From a virus (Duplodnaviria; Caudoviricetes), in IMG/VR virus record IMGVR_UViG_3300027985_000418, positions 1 to 61,029 of that record: a stretch of DNA of 61,029 bases; one strand, given 5' to 3'. Position 1 is the stretch's first letter; every line of letters begins with the position of its first letter. Shown here in pieces: positions 10,640 to 57,231 of this stretch. Made by a program: the position numbers and the translations under genes. Under the pieces are notes generated by a model, which saw only the letters and a list, made by a program, of their open reading frames with translations, did no database searches and was not told the DNA's origin.

Positions 10640-11737
10640 TTATATTGAAACATGTTGTTTGATACTAATTACATATAATGGTGTTACAACATTGATTGTA
10701 TATTCAACTATTGCACCATATATATTATTAGGATCTTGCTTAACAGATACCATTGATTTATCAAAGTCTTTGATTATCTCAAAGTCCTGTTTGGATGATA
10801 ATACATCAATTATATCTGTCTTAATTGAATTTAATACTCTTACAACGTTCTTGGTTCTTGGATAATTGGCTCTTAATCTGTTTATTACAGATTCCAAAAT
10901 ATTATCTGCGATAAATCTGGTTGTAGCATCTAACCAAGCCTTTGATAACGTACCATCAATAGTAGTACATGTTGTAGTCAACCTATATATTGTAGGCTTA
11001 CCGTCTAACATAACAATAGGTGTTATACCTGCATTCACCAATGTATCTCTTTCAACCTTATTTATAGTTCTGTCAACACCACCAAAGCCAATAAGTTTGA
11101 TATTATTCATTGGTAGTGCAGGATCTTTCATAGCTTCATTTACGGCTATAGCAGTTAATGCCGATGCACCATATACTGGATTTAATACATTATTACTAGA
11201 ATCGACCAATGATGGTCCATATATAATAATTCTGCTGTTATTAATGCCAGATGCTACAGTAGATAGATTAGCACTTGATGTATCAACACACCCAGTAATA
11301 CTATATCTTAATTTGTCCTCTGATTCTGCATAGGTTAGATGTTCAGACAATTTAGTGATTACTGTAGCATCTACTGTGTCACACATAATAAACCCAATTG
11401 TACCATCACTTAATGACTTATCGAATGATGCCTTATATGCCGATGCAATATCTGTGTATGTTTTGCCATCACCATATTCACCAACAGCAATACCTCTAAT
11501 ATCTGTTGCACCATTCACGATCATTAATCTTGTCATTTCTCCGATTACTGAATCAGTACCGAATTTTGATACTGCATCAACAACACTTGTAATCGGAAAA
11601 ATTGATTCTCTGGATGTAGTAATAATTTCACCACTACCAGGTTTTATTTCTCCAACAATTAAAATGGACTTAGGTGCTATTGATCCTGCCGATGTATTTG
11701 CTACGATATCGGACATGCCAGTTATAACATTTGCCAT
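10640..11737 (-). CDS. Tail sheath protein
   Basis: Sheath C-terminal signature (ERDTLVNAGITP...IYRLTTT...RFIADNI...VVTPLYVI). Confidence 0.85.
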   Translation of the reverse strand: MANVITGMSDIVANTSAGSIAPKSILIVGEIKPGSGEIITTSRESIFPITSVVDAVSKFGTDSVIGEMTRLMIVNGATDIRGIAVGEYGDGKTYTDIASAYKASFDKSLSDGTIGFIMCDTVDATVITKLSEHLTYAESEDKLRYSITGCVDTSSANLSTVASGINNSRIIIYGPSLVDSSNNVLNPVYGASALTAIAVNEAMKDPALPMNNIKLIGFGGVDRTINKVERDTLVNAGITPIVMLDGKPTIYRLTTTCTTIDGTLSKAWLDATTRFIADNILESVINRLRANYPRTKNVVRVLNSIKTDIIDVLSSKQDFEIIKDFDKSMVSVKQDPNNIYGAIVEYTINVVTPLYVISIKQHVSI

Positions 11738-28509: not shown

Positions 28510-28517
28510 GAGGAAAT

Positions 28518-29195: not shown

Positions 29196-29276
29196 TGAAC
29201 GAAAGGAAGAGGATAATATAGGATATAATTAGAAGATATGGAAGTAAAATTAAAGACGTAGAATGGGGAATGTAAA

Positions 29277-30984: not shown

Positions 30985-30994
30985 AATTAAATAA

Positions 30995-31024
30995 TTTATT
31001 ATGGATGATGCCTAATACTATATA
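30995..31024 (+). promoter_or_regulatory. Putative middle promoter (TTTATT-N18-TATATA)
   Basis: Variant of the motif found upstream of purZ, ssb, adk and dnaE. Confidence 0.3.
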
Positions 31025-31076
31025 CTTATTACAAGGTGATGTTAGGCATCATAAATCATATTTAGGAGGAATAATA

Positions 31077-32366: not shown

Positions 32367-32372
32367 ACATTA

Positions 32373-32402
32373 TAAATGGTGGCGAAAGTCACCATTATTT
32401 TT
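32373..32402 (+). terminator. Intrinsic terminator
   Basis: AATGGTGGC-GAAA-GTCACCATT followed by a T-rich tail. Confidence 0.65.
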
Positions 32403-32415
32403 AGGAGGACATAAT

Positions 32416-33075
32416 ATGAAATATAAATTTAAAGAATATATTTTATCAATTATATTAATATTAATATTATTAGTAGGTATATCGATTGGAATACATATTG
32501 AATTATATAAACAAGAGGATATTACTAATAGCAGTAATATCGATTGTATTGATGAATATGTTGTATCATCAATACCTATTATAACACAGTTAGCGATTTC
32601 AGAAGAAATCGAGGAAATACATAATCATTATGTTGATGTAGATTTTGATATAATATATCAAGATTATTTATATTCATTATGTGATGGTAATGATCAAAAA
32701 TATTATATCATAATGGCAATGATATATCACGAGAGTCATTATAATATAAATATAACATCACCTATCAGAAGTGATGGTTCGTGTGATATGGGATTAGTTC
32801 AAATGAATAGCAAATATTTAGAATATGAACAGGATAGATTAAACTATAAATTTGATCCATATAATCCATATGATGCTATAAAATATATTAGTATTAGATA
32901 TGATGAAGAATATGAATATTGGTCAAATAGTGAAAGTGGTATCAACTTAATAAAATGTATCTTAGGATCATATAATAAAGGCAGACAAGGTTATAATAAA
33001 TATAAGAATAATAATGGATATGATTATTATTATACAAATAACGTATTAGATACATATAATACAATGATTTTATAA
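32416..33075 (+). CDS. Membrane-anchored lytic transglycosylase (SLT domain)
   Basis: N-terminal TM; AMIYHES, GLVQMN and SYNKG motifs; AGGAGG RBS. Confidence 0.8.
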   Translation: MKYKFKEYILSIILILILLVGISIGIHIELYKQEDITNSSNIDCIDEYVVSSIPIITQLAISEEIEEIHNHYVDVDFDIIYQDYLYSLCDGNDQKYYIIMAMIYHESHYNINITSPIRSDGSCDMGLVQMNSKYLEYEQDRLNYKFDPYNPYDAIKYISIRYDEEYEYWSNSESGINLIKCILGSYNKGRQGYNKYKNNNGYDYYYTNNVLDTYNTMIL

Positions 33076-33114
33076 TCAATCCACAATATAATATATAATC
33101 ATTGAAACACAGAA
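33069..33114 (+). promoter_or_regulatory. Putative middle promoter upstream of purZ
   Basis: TTTATA-N17-TATATA plus ATTGAAACACAGAA, shared with 34807-34852. Confidence 0.6.
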
Positions 33115-33144
33115 TAAATGTTAATAAAATAAAGGAGTGAGATT

Positions 33145-34323
33145 ATGAGAGATAATCAAAGCAGAGGTAAGGTAACAGTAGTTTTAGATTCTCAAGCAGG
33201 TTCGTGTGGCAAGGGTAAATTTATAGGATATTTAGCCACACATGACAATATTGATATTGCTATGAACAATTTTATGTCAAATGCAGGTCATACAATGGTG
33301 ACTAATGATGGTAATAAAATCATGACACAGCATCTGCCAACATCACTAGCAGATCCAAACATTTTCTTATTAATAGGTCCAGGTTCAGCTATTACACCAA
33401 ATATCCTATTTGATGAAATACTTAAATTCTGTGATTTGCTTGATGATAGAAGAATTGTAATTCATCCAAGAGCAAATGTAATCCTCCCTAAACATTCAGA
33501 AATTGAAAGACAAACTATAAGATCTGGATCAACATTTAAGGGTTGTGGTGCGGCATGTGCAGATAAGGTTATGAGGACTGCAATATTATTTGGCGAATGG
33601 TTTAAAAATACTGATTGGTCAAATATGCTGAACACTAAAGGTGAGAAATACTCACAAGAAGATATTTCGTACATTTATGATACAATTGATATTGAAGACA
33701 CAATGCCAATAATCAATCAATATATTGATTGTAATTATAATGTTCTAATTGAGGGATCACAAGGATGTGATCTTGATATCAATTATGGATTGGGGTATCC
33801 ACACACAACAAGTCGGCAATGTCATGCAGGACAGCTGATAGCTGATTGTGGTATATCGCCAAAGCTTGTTGATGAAATCATTATGATAATGCGACCATAT
33901 CCAATCCGTATCAGTAATGAGACAAATATTGGTATTAATATATCAAGTGGTGATTATGATGGTGCTGATGAAATATCATGGGATATCGTTAAAGAAAGAT
34001 GTGGTGCACCTGCTGAAATGGACTTCGGTGAAATGACTACTGTTACAAAGAAACAACGTAGGGTATTTGAAATGAATTGGAGTAGACTCGAGTATGTAAC
34101 TATGCTAAACAGACCAACGCAGATTGCATTAAATTTCGTACAATACATTGATTTCAATGCATATGGTTGTACGTCTTATGATCAATTATCACAAAAGGTA
34201 ATTGATTTTATTAATAAGGTTGAGGATGTTACTGGAGTACCAGTTACATTGATTGGTACTGGTGAGAGAAATGATCAGATTATTGATCTGAGAGATATTA
34301 AAATTGGAGGTAAAAACAAATGA
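33145..34323 (+). CDS. purZ: PurZ: N6-succino-2-amino-dAMP synthase (PurA paralog of the 2-aminoadenine pathway)
   Basis: DSQAGSCGKG (Ser where PurA has the catalytic Asp of GDEGKG), NAGHT, GSTFKG, EGSQG, YPHTTSR, RPYPIRI, TTVTKKQRRVF, and LNFVQY in place of the PurA GTP-binding TKLD. Confidence 0.88.
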   Translation: MRDNQSRGKVTVVLDSQAGSCGKGKFIGYLATHDNIDIAMNNFMSNAGHTMVTNDGNKIMTQHLPTSLADPNIFLLIGPGSAITPNILFDEILKFCDLLDDRRIVIHPRANVILPKHSEIERQTIRSGSTFKGCGAACADKVMRTAILFGEWFKNTDWSNMLNTKGEKYSQEDISYIYDTIDIEDTMPIINQYIDCNYNVLIEGSQGCDLDINYGLGYPHTTSRQCHAGQLIADCGISPKLVDEIIMIMRPYPIRISNETNIGINISSGDYDGADEISWDIVKERCGAPAEMDFGEMTTVTKKQRRVFEMNWSRLEYVTMLNRPTQIALNFVQYIDFNAYGCTSYDQLSQKVIDFINKVEDVTGVPVTLIGTGERNDQIIDLRDIKIGGKNK

Positions 34324-34796
34324 AAATTGTAGACTTACCAAAATACGGTATTGATGATGTTATTGATTTATCTAGTAAGATTGATGGCTTGGCTGATAGG
34401 ATTAAGATTATCAAAGCTATAGTAGACAGATCTGGCAAATGGTCATATGAAGTGAAATCAGAAAAGAATGGTGGGAAAATTGAACTGACGGAACAATTCA
34501 TATCTAAGAATAAAATTAATAAGAATTATCATGGAGTATATAATAATACTACAATTATTGATCTTATGGCACAGGGATATAGATTCTGTGGTAATGATGA
34601 GGTATTTGCTGCTAGAGCAAAAGCTGAAAAGATAAAAGATCTAAAATTGCCGAGTATTATTGCTATTAGAATATATAATGCATATGACCATCGTGGTAAT
34701 ATACTTGGTAATAATATGAGAGGAGTATGGGTTAAATATTCAATGAGTATATTTGATCCATGTGATAATAAGGGTGAATATGAAAGAATTCTATAA
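34320..34796 (+). CDS. Hypothetical protein translationally coupled to purZ
   Basis: ATGA overlap with the purZ stop; GGAGGT RBS. Confidence 0.7.
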   Translation: MKIVDLPKYGIDDVIDLSSKIDGLADRIKIIKAIVDRSGKWSYEVKSEKNGGKIELTEQFISKNKINKNYHGVYNNTTIIDLMAQGYRFCGNDEVFAARAKAEKIKDLKLPSIIAIRIYNAYDHRGNILGNNMRGVWVKYSMSIFDPCDNKGEYERIL

Positions 34797-34806
34797 ACAC
34801 AGATAT

Positions 34807-34852
34807 TTTATAATTAGTCAACGATGTGATATATAATAATTGAAACACAGAA
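34807..34852 (+). promoter_or_regulatory. Putative middle promoter upstream of ssb
   Basis: TTTATA-N17-TATATA plus ATTGAAACACAGAA. Confidence 0.6.
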
Positions 34853-34885
34853 GTGTTTACTTTAAGAACAGAGGAGTGATCATTA

Positions 34886-35947
34886 ATGGGATGGGATAAC
34901 GTAACAGGTGATGCGAAAATCGTTCCAAGTGCAGGTGGTAATAGTAATGAGATCAAATTGGAAAATGGTAAGGCTCGTAGGGTAAGAATATTGGATAATG
35001 AACCATATTCATATCTTGAACACACATTGGAAATTGATGGTTTAGAAAATGGGCAACCTACAAAAACATTCAGAACAATCAGATGTCCAAAAACATCAGA
35101 TAATCCAAATGCACATTGTCCATTATGTGATGGACAGGTATTGAAGAGAAGAATAAGACATGCGATAAATGTATGGGATTATGAAACAAATTCCGTTCAG
35201 AAATTGAATGCAGGTGAAAATGTCTTCAAACCAATTGCAACAACACGCAAACTGGGTGTCGATATTCTGAGTGTTGATTGGGCGATCCTAAAAACTGGTG
35301 AGGGAAGAAATGATACTACATATAGTGCCACAAATCTTGGACCATCACCATTTACACTATCAGAGGGTACAAGCCTTTATGATTTAAAATCTGACTATGC
35401 ACCACATAGTGTGGATGATATGAAACAGATTATTGAATCTTGTGGTGGAAATTGGGATACTTGTATTACACAACCAACACTAATGTATCCATCATTACAA
35501 GATGCACTTGCTCATGTAATGCCAAATGGCAAATATAAGGACAAAACTTTTCAACAGATTTGGGATTTAGACAAATCTCCAAAGGGTATGATCAATTATT
35601 TGGCGACAAAATCTGATCGTATTACAATGGAAAAGGCATGTGCTCAAGTAATACTTGTTAATTTGGGCGGTGCTAATATTCCAGGTGTCCCACTTGATGG
35701 ACAAACATCTACTGCTGCATCAACTGCAACTGTATCAACTGCACCAACTGCAACTGCACCAACTGCAGACAGAACAAATAAGATTAATAACATTAATCAA
35801 CTTTTGGCAACAAAACCAAAGTATGTTAATGGTGGATTTAATCTTATTATGGAAGTTATGAAATCAGTTGGTAATGGGAAAACCAATATCAGCGATTTCA
35901 CCGATGCCGAACTTGATGCAATGCTAACAGAGTGTAACAAAGACTAA
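34886..35947 (+). CDS. Single-stranded DNA-binding protein (T4 gp32-like)
   Basis: RRVRIL, H, C...CPLC zinc site, INVWD, KTGEG..TTY; low-complexity linker and acidic end. Confidence 0.7.
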   Translation: MGWDNVTGDAKIVPSAGGNSNEIKLENGKARRVRILDNEPYSYLEHTLEIDGLENGQPTKTFRTIRCPKTSDNPNAHCPLCDGQVLKRRIRHAINVWDYETNSVQKLNAGENVFKPIATTRKLGVDILSVDWAILKTGEGRNDTTYSATNLGPSPFTLSEGTSLYDLKSDYAPHSVDDMKQIIESCGGNWDTCITQPTLMYPSLQDALAHVMPNGKYKDKTFQQIWDLDKSPKGMINYLATKSDRITMEKACAQVILVNLGGANIPGVPLDGQTSTAASTATVSTAPTATAPTADRTNKINNINQLLATKPKYVNGGFNLIMEVMKSVGNGKTNISDFTDAELDAMLTECNKD

Positions 35948-35988
35948 GTAATTGTATTACGGACAAAATTAAATCAAATTTTACAACA

Positions 35989-36033
35989 AACTTAGGCTAC
36001 CACTCTATTAATTTGGGTTTGGTAGCCTAAGTT
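35989..36033 (+). terminator. Hairpin / terminator after ssb
   Basis: AACTTAGGCTACCA/TGGTAGCCTAAGTT perfect 14-bp stem. Confidence 0.7.
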
Positions 36034-36046
36034 ATATTAAAGGAGT

Positions 36047-36908: not shown

Positions 36909-36919
36909 TGGAGGTATAT

Positions 36920-38720: not shown

Positions 38721-39650
38721 ATGAAAATTATAGAACAGGGTTATGAGATTCTTAAACCTAAAGGGGTATTACAACACATTGAACAAATTGGGAGAGTGTG
38801 TTATAAAAGTGAAGATAAAATTACAGAAGGTTCTGCATCTAAATTTGTAAATATGCTATTCAATAATGGACATTATGCAATGTTGGAACACTACAGATTT
38901 ATTATCCAAATCCCACGTGAATTATATAAAAACATAATATGGTATAATCCACATTATATTACTATGACATTCGATAATTCAAGGTCTAGATTCATTATCT
39001 CATTCTCAGCAAGAGGTATATATGAATTATATTTAACTATCAATCGTTTCGGTGATGACTATGAAACACTTTACCAAATTTCAGACATTATTTATCAAAT
39101 TTGTGAAAAACATAATTGTCATGAGATGTTTGGTAATAAATGGATTAATGTATATAATGCAGATAATGAAAAATATAATGAGATTGAAGTTACTGATATG
39201 TCAGATTATGAGAAATTGCATCATAATTGGATGTCTGTCAAATTTATTACTGATCGTGGTATATCACATGAGTTAGTAAGACATCGTGATGCATCATTTG
39301 CACAAGAATCTACAAGATATTGTGATTATTCAGCAGATGGGTGTACATATATTAAACCGTCATATTGGAAAGATGGATCTCAATTAATGTTAAATCTTGA
39401 AGTACAATGCCAAATGGACGAAGAAATGTATAATAAAATGAAAGTATTAGGTGCTGTACCACAAGAACGTAGGGCAGTATTAAATAATGCAATTAAAACA
39501 GAAATTGTTGTTACTGCTACGGAAAATGAATGGAATCATATATTTGATCTACGAGCAATTGGTACAACTGGATCTCCACACCCACAAATGAAAGCTTTGA
39601 TGTTACCATTATATGAAGAGTGTATGTTGCATAATGGCTGTATTAGATAA
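38721..39650 (+). CDS. thyX: FAD-dependent thymidylate synthase
   Basis: RGISHELVRHR..SFAQESTRY signature; HPQM. Confidence 0.92.
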   Translation: MKIIEQGYEILKPKGVLQHIEQIGRVCYKSEDKITEGSASKFVNMLFNNGHYAMLEHYRFIIQIPRELYKNIIWYNPHYITMTFDNSRSRFIISFSARGIYELYLTINRFGDDYETLYQISDIIYQICEKHNCHEMFGNKWINVYNADNEKYNEIEVTDMSDYEKLHHNWMSVKFITDRGISHELVRHRDASFAQESTRYCDYSADGCTYIKPSYWKDGSQLMLNLEVQCQMDEEMYNKMKVLGAVPQERRAVLNNAIKTEIVVTATENEWNHIFDLRAIGTTGSPHPQMKALMLPLYEECMLHNGCIR

Positions 39651-39801
39651 TGATATAAGGGTATGTCCACATTGTGGTAAAAGGTTTATATATAGACCTG
39701 CTACAATATATAAACACAAGCGAAATGGGATGACATACATATATTGTAGTTACACATGTTGGAGAGAAAATAGACCTAGAAAATACAGGAGGAAGCTATG
39801 A
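39634..39801 (+). CDS. Small zinc-finger protein
   Basis: CPHCGKRF...YCSYTC. Confidence 0.6.
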   Translation: MAVLDNDIRVCPHCGKRFIYRPATIYKHKRNGMTYIYCSYTCWRENRPRKYRRKL

Positions 39802-40400
39802 ATCATTTAATTATCATGAATGGAAAACCATTGTCTGGCAAAGACACATTCGTCAAACATTGTATGTTACATACCTTTGATATTGATTATTTATCATATG
39901 CATTTTCATCGATAGATCCAATCAAGGAGATATGTATAAAACTTGGTTGGGATAGTAGGACTAAAAATGATTATTGGCGAGATATTATGTATAAATTAAA
40001 ACAAATATGGATTGCATCATGTAATGGTCCTATGGTATATATATCTGACACAGTAATAGAAAGAATAAGGGTTAGTGGTCACAACAATAATATAATATTT
40101 GTTGATATTCGTGAGATATCTGAAATCGAAGCTGTTGTAGCAGAATTTAGTAGGCTATCATTTATCAAATGTCATACAGTATTAATTCATCGTGATGAAG
40201 TATCACACATTAATCATGGGAATGTCGCAGATGATGATGTCAATAATTATAAATACGATTATGTATTTAATAATATCGATATTAATGATATTGGTGCAAT
40301 TACAATAGCTTTCATTAATAATATTACACAGAATTCTGTGACAAAGAATATTAGTAATGGCAATTATATTAAAGAAACATTTATTGGAGGTATTAATTAA
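39798..40400 (+). CDS. P-loop (d)NMP kinase-like protein
   Basis: NGKPLSGKDT, DPIKE, DIRE and NVADDDV..YKYD motifs. Confidence 0.7.
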   Translation: MNHLIIMNGKPLSGKDTFVKHCMLHTFDIDYLSYAFSSIDPIKEICIKLGWDSRTKNDYWRDIMYKLKQIWIASCNGPMVYISDTVIERIRVSGHNNNIIFVDIREISEIEAVVAEFSRLSFIKCHTVLIHRDEVSHINHGNVADDDVNNYKYDYVFNNIDINDIGAITIAFINNITQNSVTKNISNGNYIKETFIGGIN

Positions 40401-41675: not shown

Positions 41676-44291
41676 ATGCCAATATTTAACGACATAGAAT
41701 TGGTAAGACAAGAATTAAAAAGGAATATGCCATTAAATGAATTAATAGCATTGGTTGATCATAAATTCACCATCGATACTGGCACAAAATGTGATGGTAT
41801 CGAAAGAGTTAATGATGAGTTGTATAAGAAAAGATGTGATCTATTGTCACATAAGATAGATAGTGATGGTACACGTGATAGTACACCATCATTTACTATA
41901 TGTCCGCCAAAAGAATTATGGTATTGTTTTGGGTGTGGTGCTAGTGGCGATAGATTTGAATACATATCACAAAGATTTAATGTTGACCATTATGAATCTA
42001 TTGTCATGTGTGCAGAAATACAAGGATTTGACTTGAATCCATATTATAAGGATATGTCAATAGAAGAACAGGCAAGACTTAATTTATATCTAGAGAATGA
42101 TGGTGCAAGAGATTTAGCACACAACACACTACTGATGGATGATAATGCTAGGAATTATCTATTACAACGTGGTATTACTGATGAATCAATAGATAGATAT
42201 CAGATAGGATATGCACCACCATTAAATGATGGCAAAACGATATTTGATAATATTGCTAATTGTAAAACATTACAATTACATCGCAAAAACCAATTTAATG
42301 ATGCCATCGTCTTTCCAATTAATAATATAGATGGGCATATGAGATACTTCCAATCTAGACCATTCAATCCATTACCAGGACAAAAATATATATGTGCTGA
42401 TGATACACATCCATTATTTGAAGATTATAAAATATTTGGATTAGACATCGCTCGTAGAATGGTATCAAAACACAATGGTAAAATGATATGTGTAGAGGGT
42501 GCACCAGATACTATTGCCTGTACACAACAGGGCATATGTGCATGTGGTCTATTAGGTACTGTATTTAATGAAAATACATATGAACTATTTAGTAAGTATC
42601 ATATAAATGAAATCATATTGTTGCTTGATGGAGATTTACCAGGAAGAACTAAATCATTCAAGATAGCAGAAAAATATCTAGAAATGAATACCAATATTGT
42701 ATTGAAAATAGCTACAATTGACGAAGAATTAGATCCAGAAGAATATATTAATAAGAATGGTAAAGACAAACTTATTAATATTATTGATAATGCGAAATAT
42801 GCTATACAATATCTTATTGATTTAAAATGGAATGAAGCTAAAACACCTACAGATAAAATGAACTTCATGCAATCAATCAAGATATATATGGATGCTGTAC
42901 ATGATAAAATATCAAAGAGTATAATGATTACGGATATTGCTGAAAAATTATGTATAGATCCAATACAAGTGCAAGATTTCTATAATGCATCTATAGCAGA
43001 TAAATCTGGTATTCTTGTTACTATTAATGGTGAAGCAACTGTATTAGGACAGGCTATTAGGGATAAAGATTTTGTTACTGAATTATGTACAAGATTTAAG
43101 GAAGATGATTGGTATCTAATAAAACATAAATATTTGTTTAATATCTTAAAGAAAGCCGAATTCACAGATATAGAGTCATTATATACAATAGCAAAGAATC
43201 TAAATATTGATAATATTATAACACGCACTTGGCTACAATCATTGTATGATGATAGTGGTAATGTTACATTCTGCTTAAAGGATATGGAAGACAAATTGAT
43301 AAGAAGACGCTCTATCGAATTACTAAATAAAACAAAATCAAATATATCGGATATGTCATTAGATGTATCGGTGATGTTAGAAAAACATACTGTAGATATA
43401 TTCAATATTACACATAAATCAACCAATAATAAAGTATTTGATGCACACACACAAGTAAGCGATGCAATGAATATAATACAAGAACGCATGAAAAACCCTG
43501 GTGAAATAATTGGATATAGTTTAGGTAGCAACTTTAGAAAAACTACTCTAGCAATGTTGGGTGTACAAACCAAAACACTTACAATAGTTGCCGCTAATCA
43601 ATCAGTAGGTAAAACTCTAATGTGTGAAAACTGGGCATTACATCAAGCTGTTGATTTGGGTATTGGTGTATTATGGTTTACATTAGAAATGGATAAAGAT
43701 AGAATGACATTCAGAAATTTATCCATATTAAGTAATGTACCATGTACTGGTTTAATGACTGGTAACATCACACAGGAACAAAAGCATGAAATTGATATGT
43801 CTGCAATTAAATTAGATGGATCAACATTATTCTTATCAGAACGTGGTCACGATTTGAATGAAGCATTAGCAATAGCTAGAAAATATGTTATTAAGGATAA
43901 AGTTAAGATAATATATGTCGATTACATACAATTACAATATATTAGTGATAAACGTACTGATGCTAGACATAGAGAATTAGGTATGATATCAAAAGCATGG
44001 AAACAATTTTCACAGGATATGGATGTAGCTGTTATAGCTTTATCACAATTAAATAAGGAAGCATTATCTACCAAAACAGCCGAAGCATCACAAGGTGCAG
44101 GGAGTTATGAAATTGCACAAGATGCCGATGTATATGTTACATTGAAAGATAAATCAGAGGAAGAGATATCACAACGTGGAATTGACCATGGTAATATCAC
44201 TTTAAACTTGTCTAAGAATCGTATGGGTGAGAGGGAGATATTAATCGATATATATGCAGATAAGCCAGTGTATAGAATGTCAGAAGTATAA
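41676..44291 (+). CDS. DnaG-type primase fused to a DnaB-type helicase
   Basis: CHC2-like C..H..TPSF..WYCFGC, TOPRIM EGAPD/DGDLPG, Walker A ANQSVGKT, LEM, VDYIQL, LSQLN, IAQDAD, KNRMG. Confidence 0.92.
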   Translation: MPIFNDIELVRQELKRNMPLNELIALVDHKFTIDTGTKCDGIERVNDELYKKRCDLLSHKIDSDGTRDSTPSFTICPPKELWYCFGCGASGDRFEYISQRFNVDHYESIVMCAEIQGFDLNPYYKDMSIEEQARLNLYLENDGARDLAHNTLLMDDNARNYLLQRGITDESIDRYQIGYAPPLNDGKTIFDNIANCKTLQLHRKNQFNDAIVFPINNIDGHMRYFQSRPFNPLPGQKYICADDTHPLFEDYKIFGLDIARRMVSKHNGKMICVEGAPDTIACTQQGICACGLLGTVFNENTYELFSKYHINEIILLLDGDLPGRTKSFKIAEKYLEMNTNIVLKIATIDEELDPEEYINKNGKDKLINIIDNAKYAIQYLIDLKWNEAKTPTDKMNFMQSIKIYMDAVHDKISKSIMITDIAEKLCIDPIQVQDFYNASIADKSGILVTINGEATVLGQAIRDKDFVTELCTRFKEDDWYLIKHKYLFNILKKAEFTDIESLYTIAKNLNIDNIITRTWLQSLYDDSGNVTFCLKDMEDKLIRRRSIELLNKTKSNISDMSLDVSVMLEKHTVDIFNITHKSTNNKVFDAHTQVSDAMNIIQERMKNPGEIIGYSLGSNFRKTTLAMLGVQTKTLTIVAANQSVGKTLMCENWALHQAVDLGIGVLWFTLEMDKDRMTFRNLSILSNVPCTGLMTGNITQEQKHEIDMSAIKLDGSTLFLSERGHDLNEALAIARKYVIKDKVKIIYVDYIQLQYISDKRTDARHRELGMISKAWKQFSQDMDVAVIALSQLNKEALSTKTAEASQGAGSYEIAQDADVYVTLKDKSEEEISQRGIDHGNITLNLSKNRMGEREILIDIYADKPVYRMSEV

Positions 44292-44373: not shown

Positions 44374-44913
44374 ATGAAAACATGTATCGTAATGACTGGT
44401 TATCCATGTAGTGGTAAATCGGCAATAGGCAAAAGTGTAGCATTGTTACTCAAAATACCATATATATCATCTGGTGATATTGCAAGACAAATGGCTGAGG
44501 AAGAAATAAATGCAGATGTAAATACAGCATTAAAGAATGGTATGATGGCAACGGAAGACAAAATGAGATCGAGAATGTATGAAATATTAAAAGAAACCAT
44601 TAAACACAATAAAATATTTATATTAGATGGTTTCCCACGATTTGATGATCAAAGATTGTGGATAGAAAAGCAATTTGATATTAATTATGTATATATTGAC
44701 ATACAGGCACGTCTAGACAATATTCTAGCTAGAGCAAAATCTAGATGCAGACAAGACGATGATAAATCTATATTAATAAGACGTATAGAATGGTATGAAG
44801 AAAATACTATGCCAATGCTTAAACAAATAAATCCAATTGTAATATCTGGCGATGCGTCAATTGAAGATGCATCAAATGAATTGATTCGCATAATATCGGA
44901 GGTCATATTATAA
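44374..44913 (+). CDS. Adenylate kinase-family NMP kinase
   Basis: GYPCSGKS, ISSGDIAR, LDGFPR, R.DD...RR..Y...T.P motifs. Confidence 0.88.
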   Translation: MKTCIVMTGYPCSGKSAIGKSVALLLKIPYISSGDIARQMAEEEINADVNTALKNGMMATEDKMRSRMYEILKETIKHNKIFILDGFPRFDDQRLWIEKQFDINYVYIDIQARLDNILARAKSRCRQDDDKSILIRRIEWYEENTMPMLKQINPIVISGDASIEDASNELIRIISEVIL

Positions 44914-45398
44914 TGTTGGATTATACAATGTGGGTAGAATCAGTAGATCGATATGATTTTATTAATAATCCAACTGATGAAACACCATCTATTACAATAT
45001 GGTTTAGTGGTTGCACATTTAATTGTCCTGGATGTCACAATTATAGACTACAGAATAGAAATGAGGACCAACAAATTTCAGTAAATAGATTATTAAGTCA
45101 AGTAATAGAATATGCACAAAATGTTAAATCTATTGTATTACTTGGTGGTGAACCATTACAACAACCAAATATTATATTATTCCTAACAAAATTAAGGGAG
45201 ATATTAGGACATGGATATAAAATATGGTTATATACTGGTTATGAATTTGCTGATATACCAATCCCAATATTAAATTTAGTAGATATTGTTAAATGTGGTA
45301 AATTTGACAATACAAAATTAACTGGTGGTTTCCCATCATCATCCAATCAACAATTATGGAAATATACTACTGGATGGGATAAATTTACAATAAATTGA
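44913..45398 (+). CDS. nrdG: Anaerobic ribonucleotide reductase activase
   Basis: GCTFNCPGCHN radical-SAM motif, LGGEP, WLYTG, SSNQ. Confidence 0.92.
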   Translation: MLDYTMWVESVDRYDFINNPTDETPSITIWFSGCTFNCPGCHNYRLQNRNEDQQISVNRLLSQVIEYAQNVKSIVLLGGEPLQQPNIILFLTKLREILGHGYKIWLYTGYEFADIPIPILNLVDIVKCGKFDNTKLTGGFPSSSNQQLWKYTTGWDKFTIN

Positions 45399-45407
45399 TT
45401 ATGGGAG

Positions 45408-47372
45408 TTGACATCTATGAAAATAGGTATGAATTTAATTAAGGAATTTGAAGACCTGTATGATAGTTTTATCCAATCTGATAAAGGGTTGGAATTATTA
45501 AAAATCGAGGGCATTGCACCATCAGATTTAGATATTGGTATTCTAAGTCACAATTTCTTCGATAATAAGTTATCAGATATTGCAACAGATTCTAATTCAA
45601 ATGCAAATGAAGATATATCTCCAACAAGCTATCGTACATATACAACAAATGGTCAAATGAAATTACTTGGATATCATTTATTATGGTATTATGCTAATAG
45701 GAGATTTGGTCTAGAGTGGGCAAACCAAGCAATAACTGCTATATGGAGTGGTGATTTATATTTCCATGATGCACATGGTGTGAAGATCCAGATGCCATAC
45801 TGTTATGCGTTTAGTTTAGATAAACTGGTATTTGAGGGTAGACCTTATGGATCATCGCCAAATACACCACCTAAAAACAGAAAATCATTCTTATCACAAG
45901 TTGATAAGTTAATATCAGATTTGAGCAAACAATTTGCAGGTGCTACTGCACCGAGTGATTTCTTCCTATGGTATGCATATTATTGTAAACTGGAACATAT
46001 TGATATTGACACAGAAATCGGTAAACATACTGTGGTACAGGATATGCAGGGAATTGTTTGTTTATTTAATGAATCGAATCGTTCTGAGGGAGAACCACCA
46101 TTTACAAATTTGTCAATGTATGACTCTACAGGATTACATTCATTGTTTGGTCATATTGTATATCCAGACCATACAACACCAGATTTAGATTATATAATGA
46201 AATTACAAAATATATTCTGCGAATGGTTTAGTCATGGTGATCCTATTAGTGGATTCCCATATAAATTCCCAGTTGTAACCCAAAATTTAACTATTGATGA
46301 AAATCGAAATTTTGTAAATGAAAATGATGCCATGAATGTTGCAAGATTTAATTTGGAGAAGGGTAATTTTAATCTACATTTTGGTAAAAAGAATAAGATT
46401 GCTATGTGCTGTAGATATGAAAATGATCTTGATGACATGGAAATGACACCAGATTCATTTGGTAATGGTGGTGTTAATATCGGTTCTCATAGAGTCGCAA
46501 CACCAAATTATGGTAGAGCGGCATTATTAGCAAATAAGGATATTACGAAATTTATTGAAATTCTTGATGATTATTTTGATATTTGTGCAAAATTATTATA
46601 TATCCATCGTGTTGATATCCTACAAGGCAGGATTAACAAAAATCCACAATACCTCAAATTCTTTGGAAGTCTTGGATGGTTTGATTTGAATACAATGTTT
46701 AGTACATTTGGTGTTGTCGGTATATATGAAGCAATATCATTTTTAGGCTATGATATACTTGAAGACGATGGTACTGATCTTGGTATGGATATCATGCAAT
46801 ATATCAAGTCTAAAGTTAAACAATATAGAAACGAATATGGCTTTGTGTTTAATGCAGAGGAAATTCCAGGTGAGCAAGCTTGTGTATCATTATTGAATAA
46901 GGACAAGATCATAATAGATAAATCAACATTATCTAGTGATGTTGTTAGATTATTTGATGAATGCTATTTGTACTCAAATCAATATATACCATTAATAAAT
47001 AAAGCAGATATATTAACAAGAATTGATATATCTGGTAGATTCATGAATATGATATCTGGTGGTGGTATAGTACATGCAAATGTTGAAGCACCTATAGATA
47101 CTGTCGGCAAAATGTATGAATTAATGAAATTTACTGCTAAAAGTGGTGTACCACATATGGCTGTGTGTTATCGATTTGGTAGATGTAAATATCATAAGGC
47201 TACGATTATTGGACAAGATACGAAAGTATGTCCAATATGTGGAGAACCAATTGTACATACTAGGGCGAGAGTTATTGGATACTTTAGCGATGAGCATAAC
47301 TGGCATCCAGTAAGACAAGTTTACGATGCACCAAACCGTCACTATACAAAAAATGAACAAATAAACATCTAG
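45408..47372 (+). CDS. nrdD: Anaerobic (class III) ribonucleoside-triphosphate reductase
   Basis: YFHD, PYC, PFTN, FPV.T, MCCR, CPICG and glycyl-radical RVIGY motifs. Confidence 0.93.
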   Translation: MTSMKIGMNLIKEFEDLYDSFIQSDKGLELLKIEGIAPSDLDIGILSHNFFDNKLSDIATDSNSNANEDISPTSYRTYTTNGQMKLLGYHLLWYYANRRFGLEWANQAITAIWSGDLYFHDAHGVKIQMPYCYAFSLDKLVFEGRPYGSSPNTPPKNRKSFLSQVDKLISDLSKQFAGATAPSDFFLWYAYYCKLEHIDIDTEIGKHTVVQDMQGIVCLFNESNRSEGEPPFTNLSMYDSTGLHSLFGHIVYPDHTTPDLDYIMKLQNIFCEWFSHGDPISGFPYKFPVVTQNLTIDENRNFVNENDAMNVARFNLEKGNFNLHFGKKNKIAMCCRYENDLDDMEMTPDSFGNGGVNIGSHRVATPNYGRAALLANKDITKFIEILDDYFDICAKLLYIHRVDILQGRINKNPQYLKFFGSLGWFDLNTMFSTFGVVGIYEAISFLGYDILEDDGTDLGMDIMQYIKSKVKQYRNEYGFVFNAEEIPGEQACVSLLNKDKIIIDKSTLSSDVVRLFDECYLYSNQYIPLINKADILTRIDISGRFMNMISGGGIVHANVEAPIDTVGKMYELMKFTAKSGVPHMAVCYRFGRCKYHKATIIGQDTKVCPICGEPIVHTRARVIGYFSDEHNWHPVRQVYDAPNRHYTKNEQINI

Positions 47373-47386: not shown

Positions 47387-47935
47387 ATGAAGCAGTTACA
47401 GGTATTACGTAGTGAGATGGCTAAGGAATTCCCATTAATAGCAATCGCAAAAGATGGTGATGTTGGTATGGATTTATTTGCGTGTTTGCCATTAAAAGAA
47501 AATCATGAGCAATTACTTAAGGATTATTATGATGAATGTGGTCGCAAGGATGAAAAACCCTGTAGTATGGATTCACAATTTATCAAGGAATTAATTCATG
47601 AAACAATTACAATTATGCCAGGCGAAAGGGGTGTAATTCCAACAGGGATTAGATTAGGGTTACCATCAGATCGTTGGGCATCAATTGAAGCAAGAAGTAG
47701 TACATCAAAGAAAATGTTGGTAGTACCTAAAGGAGTTATTGACCAAGGATATCGTGGAGAATTATTTGCTGTCATATTGAACCTTGGGACAAATCCAGTA
47801 ACAATTTATCATGGCGACAGATATGTACAATTAATTCTGCATAAACGTGAGATTGCAGACATCGAAGTTATAGAGGTTGATAAATTATCAGAAACAGAAC
47901 GTGGAGATAGTGGTTTCGGATCAACTGGAAGATAG
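47387..47935 (+). CDS. dut: Trimeric dUTPase family protein with a ~35-aa insertion
   Basis: Motifs GMDL, IPTG, RSS, GVIDQGYRGE, GDRYVQL and RGDSGFGSTG. Confidence 0.85.
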   Translation: MKQLQVLRSEMAKEFPLIAIAKDGDVGMDLFACLPLKENHEQLLKDYYDECGRKDEKPCSMDSQFIKELIHETITIMPGERGVIPTGIRLGLPSDRWASIEARSSTSKKMLVVPKGVIDQGYRGELFAVILNLGTNPVTIYHGDRYVQLILHKREIADIEVIEVDKLSETERGDSGFGSTGR

Positions 47936-49022: not shown

Positions 49023-49949
49023 ATGCCAAAGATTACATATACTGATCTTCATATTCACTCAGAATTTAGCCTTCAAGACGGTATGATTAAAATTGCTGAT
49101 GATGATGATCCAAAGCATATTAAAACCGAATTAATTGAAATAGTTGAAAAACGTGGTACAGGTGCAGTAACTATTACAGACCATGGTAATATGTATGGAC
49201 ATGCAAGTTTGGCTTCAGTATGTCGCACATTTGGATTAAAACATATTCCAGGATGTGAATTCTATATAGCAACAGATTCTAGACATGATAAATCATATAC
49301 AAAACGTAGCGATAGTTATATGCATATCAATGCATGGGCAAAAAATAAGATTGGTTATGCTAATATGTGTAGATTGCAAAAAATATCATTCAATGAGGGT
49401 TTCTATTATGTGCCACGTATAGATAAAGAATTAATAGAAAAATATCATGATGAAATAATGTGGTCTGATGCTTGTATTGGTGGTACAATTTGTTCACATA
49501 TAATGACAGGTAATATCGATAAGGCATATGAAGAATTTATGTGGTATTTAAATCTATTAAGAGATGATTTCTATATAGAGTATCATAATCATCATATTGA
49601 TGATGAGGATGTGTGCAACAAATACAAAGTAGAATGGGCAAATAAACATGGTGTACCAATTATTGCATGTACCGATTCGCACTTTGTAAGAAAAGATGAT
49701 ATTGATGCACACAAAGCATTATTATGTATACAATATGGTAAGGTATATGATGATCCGACATTCAATGGGTTTCCTGGCGATGGATATTGGTTGATGAATG
49801 AGAATGAATTAATTGAAAGATTCCCAATTGAATATCTCAATAATACACAATTAATTGTTAATAAAGTTGATAATGGAATTATTGAATTTGGTGATATTAG
49901 ACCACCACAATTCAAAATTCCACAATGGTTTAAGGAGGAATTAAAATGA
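49023..49949 (+). CDS. dnaE: Stand-alone PHP domain of DNA polymerase III alpha (N-terminal part of a split DnaE)
   Basis: DLHIHSEFSLQDG, ITDHGNMYG, GCEFY, FYYVPRID, SDACIGG, TDSH; ends at the PHP/core linker PQFKIP. Confidence 0.9.
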   Translation: MPKITYTDLHIHSEFSLQDGMIKIADDDDPKHIKTELIEIVEKRGTGAVTITDHGNMYGHASLASVCRTFGLKHIPGCEFYIATDSRHDKSYTKRSDSYMHINAWAKNKIGYANMCRLQKISFNEGFYYVPRIDKELIEKYHDEIMWSDACIGGTICSHIMTGNIDKAYEEFMWYLNLLRDDFYIEYHNHHIDDEDVCNKYKVEWANKHGVPIIACTDSHFVRKDDIDAHKALLCIQYGKVYDDPTFNGFPGDGYWLMNENELIERFPIEYLNNTQLIVNKVDNGIIEFGDIRPPQFKIPQWFKEELK

Positions 49950-50691: not shown

Positions 50692-50720
50692 TTTATAGAT
50701 CACTTAATGTGGTCTATATT
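50692..50720 (+). promoter_or_regulatory. Putative middle promoter upstream of the DnaE core
   Basis: TTTATA-N17-TATATT. Confidence 0.5.
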
Positions 50721-50759
50721 TATGTTAGGAAATTCAATAAATCTATTAGGAGGTATACA

Positions 50760-53699
50760 ATGGAAAAGAGTATGTCGGAACAATATCTATGGAGATTAAT
50801 ACATGATGGCTTATATAAATTGTATGGTGATAATATACCACAAGAAGTTATTGATCGCATTAATATTGAAATGGATGTAATCGTTCCAAACAAATTTGAT
50901 GATTATATCCTAGTTATATGGGATATACATGATTTCTGCAAAACACCATCAAGGGTATTTGAATTCTGTGAGAGAAAAGGAATTACACCACCACCAGATG
51001 GTATTATACCATTAGGTCCAGGCAGAGGATCTGTGGGCGGATCATATGTATGTTATTGTATTGGTATCCATGAATGTGATCCGTTATTATTTGGTCTTTA
51101 TTTTGAAAGATTCTTAAATCCTGAACGTATTGCATATCCCGATATAGATTTTGATATCAGTCAAAAATATAGACATATAGGATTAGCTTATATTGCAGAC
51201 ACATATGGCGAAGAATACGTATCACAAATCATTACATATGGTACATTATCATTAAAAACGGTAATACATGATGTAATGGTTACTGCATGTATACCAAATT
51301 CTGTTATTAATACTGTGAAAGCAACAATTCCAGATGATCCATCAATTACATTATCTAAAATGTTAGACGATAAAAAATTTATAGATGCATTAAATGCTAT
51401 TGAATTTCCTAATCAAATATTTACCGTCGATGCTTCAAATATACAACGTATTATTAATAATAATAAATTTGAATGCGATGATGATAAAATTAATAAACAT
51501 AATAGGGAAACTATATTAGGTATAATGTCAAAAACAATACAATCTGGCACATTAATTATCAAATCATCATGGAATGTTGACAGATTGATATACGTCATGA
51601 GTAGATTAGAGGGATTATGTAAAAATGAGTCTACGCATGCTGCAGGAGTAGTAGTTGCACCAGTAACTTTGGAAGATAATATACCACTATTTAGAAAAAG
51701 TGGTACTGGTGTATTAGCAAGTCAATATGATATGATATCGCTTGAAGAAATCGGATATCTTAAGATGGATGCACTTGGATTACGTACAGTTGATGTTAAT
51801 CATGAAGCTGAGAGATTGGTGAAGCAATGGTATGATCCACAGTTCTCAATCAGAGATATACGATATGATGATAAGGATACAATTGATCTTATTAATAGTG
51901 GCGATACAATTGGTATATTCCAGATAGAATCAACTGGATTTACTAAAATGATGCAAGACCTTGATATTGGTGGATATGAAACAGAAAGATATGCTGATCG
52001 TAATAATAATCTATTATCACAGGTAGAGAAGATACGTGGATTAGAGGTTAAAGATTTTATGTGGATATCTGCAGGATTAGCATTATATCGCCCTGGACCA
52101 TTAGATGCGATTATTGATGGCAAAACAATGGTACAGCATCTAATAGATCGTAAGTCTGGCAAAGAGCCTATAATCTATCTATTTGACGAAGAAAAAGGAT
52201 ACCTAGAAGAAACATATGGTGTACTAGTATATCAAGAGCAGGTTATGGCGAGAGTTAGACAAATGACAGGATGCTCACTTGGTAGAGCCGATATTTTACG
52301 TAAGGCAATGGGTAAGAAGAATCCTGTGTTAATGAAAGAACAGATGGATTGGTTCGTAGAATCTGCTATGAAACATCAATTTTCTGAAAAAATAATAGTA
52401 AATAAATCCCAAATAGTTGATAGAGCAAAAGAAGAAATAGAAAAATTCGCTAGATATGGATTTAATAAGGCTCATACAGTAGAATACGGACATATATGTT
52501 ATCGTAATGCATACTTCAAAAAACATTATCCTACAGCATTCTATACAGCGATATTAAATTCAGAAAATGGTAATCCAAAAAGACAAACAATATTAATCAG
52601 AGATATGTTGGCACATGATATACAGCTATCTCCACCAGATATTAACAAGTCAGATTTAGAATTTACTATGACAGACATTAATACAATAAGCTTTGGGTTA
52701 TCATCAATTAAGAATATTGGTGGCAGGGCAGTTGGTACAATTATTGATGATAGATCAAAAAATGGTGATTATAAATCATTACATGATTTTCGTATCAGAA
52801 TACCATCAACCGATTGTAATATTACTGGTATTACAAATCTAGCAAAATGTGGTGCATTTGATAATATTTGTATCAATGTTGATGGTGAGTATAGTTTTAA
52901 TAATAGAGCATCATTGGTAGAAACAATACCTGGTATATGTGATATTATTAAGAAATTATCTGCTAAAAAGGGAAAGGACAAACCTAAGCCAACTGTGGCA
53001 GAGGTTAAACAAAAATGGATTAATGGTGGATATAAATATTCAATAATACATGGAGAAGATGATCCTATTCAATATGCATTGTGGGAAAAAGAGATATTAA
53101 CATATTATATTTCTGCACATCCAATAGATAAATATACTGACGAAATACGCAGGTATGGTTCAATAGAAGATACTGAATTGGAAGATCTTCCTAATGAATT
53201 TTATATCGTTGGATTTGTTGAAAGTTGTCATGAAACAGTAATAAAAAAAGAGGGTAGGAACAAAGGCAAGGCAATGGGATTCTTGTCTATTGGTACTGCA
53301 TATAAAATGTATGAAGCTACTATGTTCCCAGGTATTTATGAATCATGTTTACCATATATAAAAACAGGTAATCCAATAGTATTAAAAGGTAAACGTGACA
53401 CTTATCGTGATGTTGTAACAATACAATGTATATATGTTAGAGGTATTACAAATACTGGAGTGAGAGATTGTCCAGAATGTCATTTGAGGATAGATAAATC
53501 TATTACACCTGCCCAAATTATTCAATTAAAATCAATATGTAATGAGCATCCAGGAATGACAAAAATGTTTATACACATATTAGATGGATACAATGATATT
53601 ACAATTGAATGCACACAAACGATAGCATTGAATGATCATATTATTGAATTTGCAGAATCTATTGGACAATTATCATATAAACCGATTCCATTAAAATAA
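50760..53699 (+). CDS. dnaE: DNA polymerase III alpha core (family C) lacking the PHP domain
   Basis: GPGRGSVGGS, FERFLNPER, PDIDFD, HAAGVV, KMDALGL, LYRPGP, YQEQ, FNKAH, HhH and OB fold; AGGAGGT RBS. Confidence 0.95.
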   Translation: MEKSMSEQYLWRLIHDGLYKLYGDNIPQEVIDRINIEMDVIVPNKFDDYILVIWDIHDFCKTPSRVFEFCERKGITPPPDGIIPLGPGRGSVGGSYVCYCIGIHECDPLLFGLYFERFLNPERIAYPDIDFDISQKYRHIGLAYIADTYGEEYVSQIITYGTLSLKTVIHDVMVTACIPNSVINTVKATIPDDPSITLSKMLDDKKFIDALNAIEFPNQIFTVDASNIQRIINNNKFECDDDKINKHNRETILGIMSKTIQSGTLIIKSSWNVDRLIYVMSRLEGLCKNESTHAAGVVVAPVTLEDNIPLFRKSGTGVLASQYDMISLEEIGYLKMDALGLRTVDVNHEAERLVKQWYDPQFSIRDIRYDDKDTIDLINSGDTIGIFQIESTGFTKMMQDLDIGGYETERYADRNNNLLSQVEKIRGLEVKDFMWISAGLALYRPGPLDAIIDGKTMVQHLIDRKSGKEPIIYLFDEEKGYLEETYGVLVYQEQVMARVRQMTGCSLGRADILRKAMGKKNPVLMKEQMDWFVESAMKHQFSEKIIVNKSQIVDRAKEEIEKFARYGFNKAHTVEYGHICYRNAYFKKHYPTAFYTAILNSENGNPKRQTILIRDMLAHDIQLSPPDINKSDLEFTMTDINTISFGLSSIKNIGGRAVGTIIDDRSKNGDYKSLHDFRIRIPSTDCNITGITNLAKCGAFDNICINVDGEYSFNNRASLVETIPGICDIIKKLSAKKGKDKPKPTVAEVKQKWINGGYKYSIIHGEDDPIQYALWEKEILTYYISAHPIDKYTDEIRRYGSIEDTELEDLPNEFYIVGFVESCHETVIKKEGRNKGKAMGFLSIGTAYKMYEATMFPGIYESCLPYIKTGNPIVLKGKRDTYRDVVTIQCIYVRGITNTGVRDCPECHLRIDKSITPAQIIQLKSICNEHPGMTKMFIHILDGYNDITIECTQTIALNDHIIEFAESIGQLSYKPIPLK

Positions 53700-56629: not shown

Positions 56630-56737
56630 ATGGATCAACAATTGCCATGGGAAACACCACTAATTGCTTTTATATTATCAACTATGGTTGGTAGGGTAAT
56701 TGCAGTAGATATAATAAGAACGGAGATATCAAAATGA
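56630..56737 (+). CDS. Small hydrophobic peptide
   Basis: GGAGG RBS; ATGA overlap with the next gene. Confidence 0.4.
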   Translation: MDQQLPWETPLIAFILSTMVGRVIAVDIIRTEISK

Positions 56738-57231
56738 GTAAATTTTATAATGATAATAGTATTGCACCAATTATTGCAATAGATTTTGATGGTACATTCA
56801 ATATTGAAAATGTCTATCCAGACACTGGTATAATTAGACCATATGCTAAAGAGATATGTGATTTTCTTCATGATATCGGTGTTAAAATTATTGTATGGAC
56901 ATCTAGGGATCATAATCATTCAACAAATAATATGGTCACATTCTTAAATGAAAATGATATTCCATATAACTCAATCAACAGTTCAATTGACTTTGCACCA
57001 TATTATTATGAAAGCAGAAAAATTTATGCACATATGTATGTTGATGATCGTGCATATGGATGGACGGATACACCAACAGTTATGTGTGATGTATTGAGAG
57101 AATTCTTAATATCTGTATTACATATTGAGGATCACTATGCATATACGATTGCAAGTCAAATAAAACATAACAGAAAGGTAGATAATATATATTATGATAT
57201 GTGCAAAGACGTTATCAGACAATGGAATTGA
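56734..57231 (+). CDS. HAD-superfamily phosphatase-like protein (BT0820-like)
   Basis: IDFDGT, WTSR and RKIYAHMYVDDR motifs. Confidence 0.8.
   Translation: MSKFYNDNSIAPIIAIDFDGTFNIENVYPDTGIIRPYAKEICDFLHDIGVKIIVWTSRDHNHSTNNMVTFLNENDIPYNSINSSIDFAPYYYESRKIYAHMYVDDRAYGWTDTPTVMCDVLREFLISVLHIEDHYAYTIASQIKHNRKVDNIYYDMCKDVIRQWN

Follow-up and report, generated by a model that had tools for sequence, protein, structure and literature searches.

The base Z (2-aminoadenine) replaces adenine in the DNA of some phages. The characterised Z phages are siphoviruses or podoviruses that pair the synthetase PurZ with DatZ and MazZ, or the synthetase PurZ0 with DutZ, and whose DNA is copied by a PolA-type polymerase or a PrimPol. 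Here, we describe a gene for a homologue of the PurZ-type succino-aminodeoxyadenylate synthase (purZ) in the viral record IMGVR_UViG_3300027985_000418, the whole of which (61,029 bases, linear, CheckV completeness estimate of 93%) we call the window, and compare the gene and its surroundings with these systems. The window probably represents a Z-DNA phage lineage, and its gene content predicts an architecture that is non-classical but does include partners for PurZ. With a DutZ-like enzyme, the phage's own kinases and a DnaE replicase beside PurZ, it appears to be a third way to put a Z pathway together.

The published account closest to our question (PMC12884076, 2026) reports dutZ in all 98 PurZ0 genomes, whilst most PurZ genomes combine DatZ with either MazZ-2 or DUF550. 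The DutZ of PurZ0 actinophages hydrolyses both dATP and dGTP, an activity that is known for the enzymes of Ghobes and Wayne only (PMC12884076). The Z-phage hosts named in the text of that Nucleic Acids Research article belong solely to the Pseudomonadota, Cyanobacteriota and Actinomycetota, and its main text mentions neither Bacillota, Firmicutes, Clostridia, polymerase III nor myoviruses. Among the papers listed by a whole-word search for PurZ with phage, no title or opening of an abstract dealt with Firmicute phages or a family-C polymerase. Another paper states that dZ-DNA has been predicted in >2000 viruses from PurZ homology, and relatives of the window PurZ may already figure in published lists or supplements.

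As in the classical PurZ clusters of phiVC8/VP2, SH-Ab 15497, PMBT28 and cyanophage S-2L, the synthetase of the window falls in the PurZ clade, has Ser and non-Asp signatures together with Phe/Tyr at the nucleoside triphosphate (NTP) site, and is encoded in the replication module next to a gene for a protein resembling single-stranded DNA-binding protein (SSB). In contrast to these clusters, no DatZ (HD), DUF550/DUF5664, DpoZ (PolA) or PrimPol was found in the window, which carries instead a Dut-like gene, genes for nucleoside monophosphate (NMP) kinases and a split dnaE. It differs further in its contractile tail, in its probable Firmicute hosts as opposed to Pseudomonadota, Cyanobacteriota and Actinomycetota, and in a PurZ identity of ~30-34%. 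With the PurZ0/DutZ/DmtZ actinophages (Gordonia phage Ghobes, Arthrobacter phage Wayne) the window shares a Dut-family enzyme as conserved pool regulator, and the two Dut-type proteins have in common a Trp before R-S-S and a G-E-L-F motif. However, its synthetase lies on the PurZ side, whereas PurZ0 keeps the guanine-reading Asp, and it has no match to NDT/DmtZ or to the PolA-type DpoZ-1. The short archaeal PurA 5k7x/2d7u, which we take to be from Pyrococcus horikoshii, is of a similar length class to the window PurZ and is its best sequence match in the PDB, but has G-D-E-G-K-G and M-L-D where the window protein has G-S-C-G-K-G and V-Q-Y.

The PurZ-type synthetase

The product of purZ (Table 1) matches PHROG 1211, which bears the name '2-aminooxy adenylosuccinate synthetase'. 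All four PurZ-substitution motifs that an earlier note on this DNA had claimed were found in the translation, namely D-S-Q-A-G-S-C-G-K-G (residues 15-24), R-P-Y-P-I-R (250-255), T-T-V-T-K-K-Q-R-R-V (298-307) and L-N-F-V-Q-Y (329-334). When the protein was aligned with the PurZ of VP2 (phiVC8-type), SH-Ab 15497 and PMBT28, three PurZ0 enzymes and Salmonella PurA, residues Ser20, Thr298, Phe331, Gln333 and Tyr334 aligned with S14, T262, F295, N297 and Y298 of the phiVC8-type enzyme. Ser20 stands at the position of the catalytic Asp13 of PurA, which is Asp in the Salmonella protein. Gln333 stands at the Asp of the PurA motif T-K-L-D, presumably the guanine-reading residue; this site is Asp in PurA and PurZ0, and Asn in classical PurZ. 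The position of PurZ F12 is not conserved, being Ala18 in the window protein and the whole of its subclade, and those of S14 and T262 are. True PurA sequences have Asp13 in 99% of cases and phage PurZ-group sequences have Ser in 100% (PMC12884076). In addition, Thr298, Trp279, Pro253, Phe331 and Tyr334 of the window protein occupy positions that a bioRxiv preprint (10.1101/2025.10.22.683976) flags for PurZ, the same preprint describing roles for Phe295 and Tyr298 at the adenine ring.

An exhaustive HMMER search recovered 4728 PurZ relatives at E<=0.001. At E<=1e-10 there were 2792 homologues in public metagenomes, the best 120 of which have identities of 62-71% and many of which lie on contigs of 55-69 kb. 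We aligned 154 rows, comprising 140 of 150 listed representatives (ten shorter than 320 aa were dropped), six proteins of the window family and eight references. The catalytic-Asp position is Ser in 151 rows and Asp in two (P0175 and Salmonella PurA). At the guanine-reading site, the 110 rows of the clade that holds the window and classical PurZ divide into Asn (53), Gln (28), Asp (24) and Glu (5); beyond that clade the residue is Asp in 36 of 44 rows.

Trees were computed with IQ-TREE from 65 rows hand-picked from the 154, rooted on PurA, and with FastTree from all 154, in a sampling without archaeal PurA. In the IQ-TREE phylogeny a 46-row clade with support of 100/98 unites the window protein with the PurZ of VP2, SH-Ab 15497 and PMBT28 and excludes PurZ0. 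Its members are the window's own 12-row subclade (100/99), a subclade containing the cultured Bacillus phage vB_BpsS-140 and the characterised PurZ enzymes, and the FastTree result agrees. Beyond it lie the PurZ0 enzymes of Ghobes, Johann and Joann, united in a clade of their own (100/100), and also the kinase-fused forms. Residues and the PurA/PurZ/PurZ0 phylogeny thus bear out the earlier assignment of the protein as PurZ-type, neither PurA nor PurZ0. The catalytic motifs are invariant in 26 relatives at 55-71% identity, and across 27 sequences more than 100 columns are invariant, the P-loop and substrate motifs among them. On the alignment and trees, we place the window protein in a deep new PurZ subclade, which probably uses ATP.

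An AAGGAG lies 7 nt before the purZ ATG. The promoter motif that had been ascribed to the gene does exist (Table 1), but such sites are no commoner in the region than by chance, the scan giving 20 against 21.3 +/- 4.8 expected from shuffled sequence. Amongst the wider set of PurZ homologues, four (P0144, P0177, P0231 and P0214) are split by inteins with LAGLIDADG or HINT domains.

The Dut-like protein and searches for classical partners

The earlier note had described a PurZ with none of the usual partners and an unknown means of adenine exclusion. This part of its account is not supported, as the window encodes a conserved Dut-like protein sister to DutZ, two NMP-kinase-like proteins and a phosphatase of HAD type. 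The Dut-like gene had been overlooked. We compared the window with nine related IMG/VR records whose PurZ is 36-67% identical; five of these are at least 97% complete, three of the five having direct terminal repeats, and the Dut-like gene is kept in all five near-complete relatives.

A tblastn search with the Dut-like protein matched 1810 phage records. The top match was dut of vB_BpsS-140 (41.7% identity, E-value 1e-32, 127 bits), followed, at 86-89 bits, by the Duts of Microbacterium phages in which PurZ0 is also encoded. A first tree of 16 rows placed the window protein as sister to DutZ (92/91). We then enlarged the tree to 22 rows by adding the best non-Z relatives of Ghobes DutZ from a reciprocal search (Staphylococcus, Mammaliicoccus, Enterococcus, Desulfovibrio and Vibrio); Ghobes gp53 (NDT-like, not Dut), L021 (identical to L019) and the faecal fragment L028 were excluded, and the Joann and Spocter proteins were cut back to their Dut domains. 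In this enlarged tree the seven rows made up by the window family and vB_BpsS-140 (99/99) are sister to the four PurZ0-phage Duts of Ghobes, Johann, Joann and Spocter (92/96), forming a joint clade of 11 rows (96/88). The phage Duts from Staphylococcus, Mammaliicoccus, Enterococcus, Desulfovibrio, Vibrio, Marinitoga, Salmonella, Caulobacter and Bacteroides lie beyond it, together with Escherichia coli Dut. Within this sample the combination of the Trp before R-S-S and the G-E-L-F motif is confined to the joint clade. From its motifs, the Dut-like protein is expected to have dUTPase activity, as DutZ does.

A two-residue deletion of 'GN' in the uracil hairpin was considered as a further DutZ signature and dropped, since the phage Duts from Staphylococcus, Enterococcus, Vibrio and Desulfovibrio have it too. 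Within the window family, an insert of ~33 residues after motif 1 is present in the window protein, L020 and L023 and missing from L018, L019 and L022. Ghobes gene 53 (L002, 12693-13178), although annotated as a deoxyuridine triphosphatase, has no dUTPase motifs and resembles the NDT-like N-terminal half of Joann gp53; judging by this resemblance, it is probably the DmtZ of PMC12884076.

Two further components of the putative pool module are kinases. The protein of the adenylate kinase (ADK) family matches PDB adenylate kinases at 5e-10, is 35% identical to the 'adk' product of vB_BpsS-140 and is encoded in five of five near-complete relatives. Elsewhere, kinase and synthetase occur in one polypeptide: four metagenomic Ser-type PurZ homologues (P0191, P0226, P0236 and P0258) have an N-terminal P-loop kinase domain (AAA_18/AAA_33), and these fusions form a clade of their own that groups with PurZ0 (95/80). 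The recurrent linkage suggests that the phage kinase acts on the product nucleotide. In L017, a distant relative with a PurZ of 36% identity, the gene after purZ (11134-12147) encodes a 337-aa protein that starts with an ADK-like P-loop region and has a helical C-terminal portion which, by eye, resembles NTP pyrophosphatases. The HAD-like protein of the window matches PDB entry 2obb at 5.6e-6, and its gene, like that of the polymerase III alpha core, is retained in five of five near-complete relatives. The PHP protein and this alpha core make up the only polymerase found in the window; between their genes lies a Cys-rich ORF (open reading frame) of 121 aa (50311-50676) with weak matches only (phrog_38239, 2.2e-4).

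The whole record, searched in six frames at E<=1, yielded no match for HD (PF01966), MazG (PF03819), PolA (PF00476), DUF550 (PF04447), NDT or DUF5664. Prim-Pol was absent at E<=0.01 from Pfam scans of 40 ORFs, which included no search aimed at PF09250. The HD domain was also missing from all nine related records, the five near-complete ones included, and MazG (PF03819), PolA and DUF550 were each missing from the five near-complete relatives; the complete genome of vB_BpsS-140 has neither HD nor MazG. As positive controls we used three classical Z phages, in which HD and DUF550 were each detected in two and MazG PF03819 in none. The PF03819 model is therefore uninformative for MazZ, and a MazZ-2 of the phiVC8 type could escape it. 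In the searches made, the absence of HD, PolA and PrimPol ORFs from the replication arm holds as first described, as does, for PF03819 and DUF550, that of MazG-like ORFs; a family-C polymerase is the only one there. The idea that a canonical datZ or dpoZ lies hidden in the missing ~7% of the genome was ruled out, since the near-complete relatives and vB_BpsS-140 are without HD and the near-complete relatives are without PolA.

A cultured relative, the candidate pathway and its alternatives

The closest isolate is vB_BpsS-140 (MH884512, 55,091 bases), whose PurZ and Dut are each 42% identical to those of the window. Both genomes have the gene order PDDEXK, PurZ, SSB-like, helicase, primase, ADK, Dut, sigma and split DnaE (PHP and polymerase III alpha). 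Unlike the window, vB_BpsS-140 lacks the 158-aa ORF after purZ, and it is a siphovirus whose host is an aerobic, alkaliphilic Bacillus (PMC6483233). No match to NrdD, ThyX or the deoxynucleoside monophosphate (dNMP) kinase was found in the 31-kb part of the genome that was compared. The describing paper (PMC6483233) reports sequencing by PacBio RSII, lists dnaE_1 and dnaE_2, and gives the deposit as DSM 29700. In the GenBank table, ~3.6 kb that encode homologues of the PHP protein and polymerase III alpha (38% and 31% identity to the window) carry no feature (MH884512.1, 26973-30262). Amongst the phage genomes tested in PMC6483233, that of vB_BpsS-140 was the sole one left uncut by DraI, which recognizes TTTAAA. 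The 31 kb that we examined contain 14 DraI sites and 15 GAATTC sites, and the DraI result fits a modification of A or T.

In the pathway that we propose, NrdD/NrdG and ThyX would supply deoxynucleotides, and the DutZ-like enzyme would act twice on the pool, turning dGTP into dGMP that feeds PurZ and dATP into dAMP so that adenine is excluded. PurZ would join dGMP to aspartate to give N6-succino-2-amino-dAMP, the committed step towards dZTP, and the host adenylosuccinate lyase would then yield dZMP. The ADK-like and/or dNMP-kinase-like enzymes of the phage, with the host nucleoside diphosphate kinase, would carry dZMP to dZTP. Finally, the split DnaE-type polymerase would place Z opposite T because dATP is depleted, and not by selectivity of its own; for S-2L, a non-selective polymerase is reported to be enough once dATP has been removed (PMC8065100). 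On balance we favour this interpretation, in which an ATP-type PurZ works within a self-contained nucleotide-pool module and Z substitution is substantial. A broader version can be put forward as a tentative proposal, one that we think somewhat less likely to be right than wrong: full Z substitution would be achieved in an extensive phage lineage of anaerobic Firmicutes from gut and vent, by a pathway put together unlike any yet described, with an ATP-type PurZ, a DutZ-like dATP/dGTP pyrophosphatase, an ADK-type dZMP kinase of the phages' own and a family-C replicase. A polymerase III-type enzyme would then, for the first time, be seen to replicate Z-DNA. Some members would be temperate, their DNA being A-DNA in a prophage on the Clostridia chromosome and Z-DNA in the virion.

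Several observations weigh against substantial substitution by such a module. The Dut-like protein has all five dUTPase motifs, so that it could be an ordinary dUTPase, and the Dut tree is small, at 22 rows. Relatives lie inside bacterial contigs, where the DNA must be ordinary A-DNA. The DNA of vB_BpsS-140 was cut by EcoRI (PMC6483233), a result that may point to incomplete protection, and the resistance to DraI could equally be due to a thymine modification or a methylase. A reading that we consider unlikely though worth serious attention is that of an active PurZ with no more than partial substitution, or of dZTP made for a different purpose, such as escaping restriction at some sites or perturbing host replication; the Dut-like protein would then be a plain dUTPase and dATP would not be removed. 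Such an outcome would agree with the failure of our searches to find either an HD dATPase or a Z-selective PolA, with the cutting of vB_BpsS-140 DNA by EcoRI but not DraI, and with the report that purZ clusters expressed in E. coli gave partial replacement only (PMC12944874). Against it, the Dut-like protein groups specifically with DutZ and co-occurs with PurZ in all five near-complete relatives and vB_BpsS-140, and the S-2L precedent indicates that selectivity is dispensable after dATP removal.

The curated models raise a different doubt, about the synthetase itself. The NCBIfam PurZ model NF038379 scores 196.2 bits, short of its cut-off of 300, and the archaeal PurA model NF003295 scores higher, at 220.7 bits, the top NCBIfam score, though short of its own cut-off of 368. 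The bacterial PurA model TIGR00184 gives 170 bits against a cut-off of 395.55. In the PDB, the adenylosuccinate synthetase 5k7x/2d7u (1.9e-45) ranks ahead of the PurZ entries 6fm1 (4e-36) and 7odx (1e-27), with E. coli PurA at 5e-24. Taken at face value, these matches would describe an auxiliary purine enzyme, an archaeal-type PurA-like protein converting IMP to adenylosuccinate and boosting AMP and dATP in a phage with ordinary DNA. We think this improbable: the catalytic Asp, near-universal in true PurA, is replaced by the Ser of the phage PurZ group, the guanine-reading Asp is replaced by Gln, every PurA model scores far under its cut-off, and the tree places the protein with the characterised PurZ enzymes. 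The PurZ model NF038379 carries the type 'exception', and the classical PurZ group was presumably its source. We have filed the protein as PurZ because its residue signatures and phylogeny are clearer than the curated models. That it could be a decaying or non-functional remnant within the replication module is hardly credible; nothing in favour of this was found, and the intact frame of 392 aa, the thousands of homologues at E<=1e-10 and the numerous invariant columns oppose it.

In its gene content the lineage breaks both known pairings, since a DutZ-like enzyme and a polymerase of family C accompany a synthetase from the PurZ side. If Z is confirmed, phages of Clostridia and Bacillus join its known carriers, a DnaE-type replicase is able to build Z-DNA, and depletion of dATP, rather than polymerase choice, gains support as the general mechanism of exclusion. 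The lineage is abundant in public metagenomes, and the deposited isolate vB_BpsS-140 makes the question of Z directly testable.

Genome organisation, hosts and neighbouring genes

GC skew and ORF layout divide the window into two arms, a minus-strand structural arm from position 1 to ~22,000 and a plus-strand replication arm at ~22,300-58,800. The window encodes a tail sheath and a baseplate wedge, and likewise a baseplate hub, tape measure, capsid, portal and terminase. Sheath and baseplate genes are present, and the tail is therefore contractile, in keeping with the myovirus morphology first suggested for it.

The best explanation of the gene content and of the related loci is a phage lineage of ~63 kb, contractile-tailed, with anaerobic Firmicutes as hosts. 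Indirect host evidence comes from the LysM amidase and the anaerobic NrdD/NrdG encoded in the window. Amongst species-representative genomes, 12 of 16 loci with a PurZ at 41-56% identity carry Clostridia or Clostridium labels as metagenome-assembled genomes (MAGs). On one 398-kb Clostridia MAG contig (G011:C1), a PurZ-like gene (314679-315749) lies 145 kb from a gene for a 424-aa PurA-like protein (169255-170064). The presence of a PurZ-like gene and a normal purA on this contig indicates a chromosomal location in that relative, which is hence probably a prophage. Relatives in Clostridia MAGs support the host group claimed in the earlier note, which is nevertheless only partly new: GenBank has included the genome of a cultured Bacillus phage carrying this module since 2018.

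Table 1. Features of the window discussed in the text, in order of position
Feature	Coordinates	Strand	Supporting match or remark
Baseplate wedge	2618-3691		phrog_6 4e-50
Tail sheath (contractile tail)	10640..11737	-	phrog_165 4.3e-23
PD-(D/E)XK nuclease	30981-32366
Promoter-like TTGAAA-17-TAAAAT	33102..33130	+	upstream of purZ
PurZ-type succino-aminodeoxyadenylate synthase homologue, 392 aa, ATG start	33145..34323	+	PF00709 1.7e-45; PHROG 1211 4.6e-66
158-aa ORF, start overlapping purZ stop	34320..34796	+	downstream of purZ in 7/9 related loci, 33-39% identity
SSB-like protein	34886-35947
Helicase	37204-38670
ThyX thymidylate synthase	38721..39650	+	PF02511 5.8e-28
dNMP-kinase-like P-loop protein	39798..40400	+	phrog_139 2.9e-10; in 6 related loci
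DnaG primase-DnaB helicase fusion	41676..44291	+	PF03796 5.5e-36, PF08275, PF01807, Toprim
ADK-family NMP kinase, 179 aa; candidate dZMP kinase	44374..44913	+	PF00406 1.3e-13
NrdG activase and NrdD anaerobic ribonucleotide reductase	44913..47372	+	PF13353 8.8e-21; PF13597 8.4e-72
DutZ-like trimeric dUTPase-family protein, 182 aa; candidate dATP/dGTP pyrophosphatase	47387..47935	+	PF00692 1.5e-19
Sigma factor	47946-48695
PHP domain protein, N-terminal part of split DnaE-type polymerase	49023..49949	+	PF02811 6.2e-32
DNA polymerase III alpha core, family C, DnaE type	50709..53699	+	PF07733 1.9e-62, PF17657 1.4e-38, PF14579 5.1e-21
Stand-alone HIRAN domain protein, late replication arm	56146-56463		PF08797 4.1e-16
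HAD-type phosphatase-like protein, DxDGT motif; speculative nucleotide phosphatase	56734..57231	+	phrog_1238 3.8e-20
RNase H	57194-57775
Ligase	57756-58841

Gene order near purZ is conserved among the related loci. The 158-aa ORF that follows purZ was considered as a hidden DatZ or MazZ and set aside: it has no word-index homologues, no usable Atlas match and no Foldseek match in the PDB at E<=0.001, searches in which its C-terminal half was barely covered. In its AlphaFold2 model (pLDDT 86.7), residues 4-67 form a Tudor/SH3-like barrel, a common fold (VIA-align Z-scores of 6.0-6.7).

A megablast search with positions 25000-45000 of the window against phages gave no match. The window itself is present, as contigs, in three sequencing runs whose labels are hydrothermal-vent metagenome and metagenome and which may be its source. 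Counts of short sites over the whole window depart from a mononucleotide expectation, which is a crude model: GGTACC and GGATCC are each absent (3.9 expected for each), TTTAAA occurs 40 times against 108 expected, and CTGCAG occurs 16 times against 3.9.

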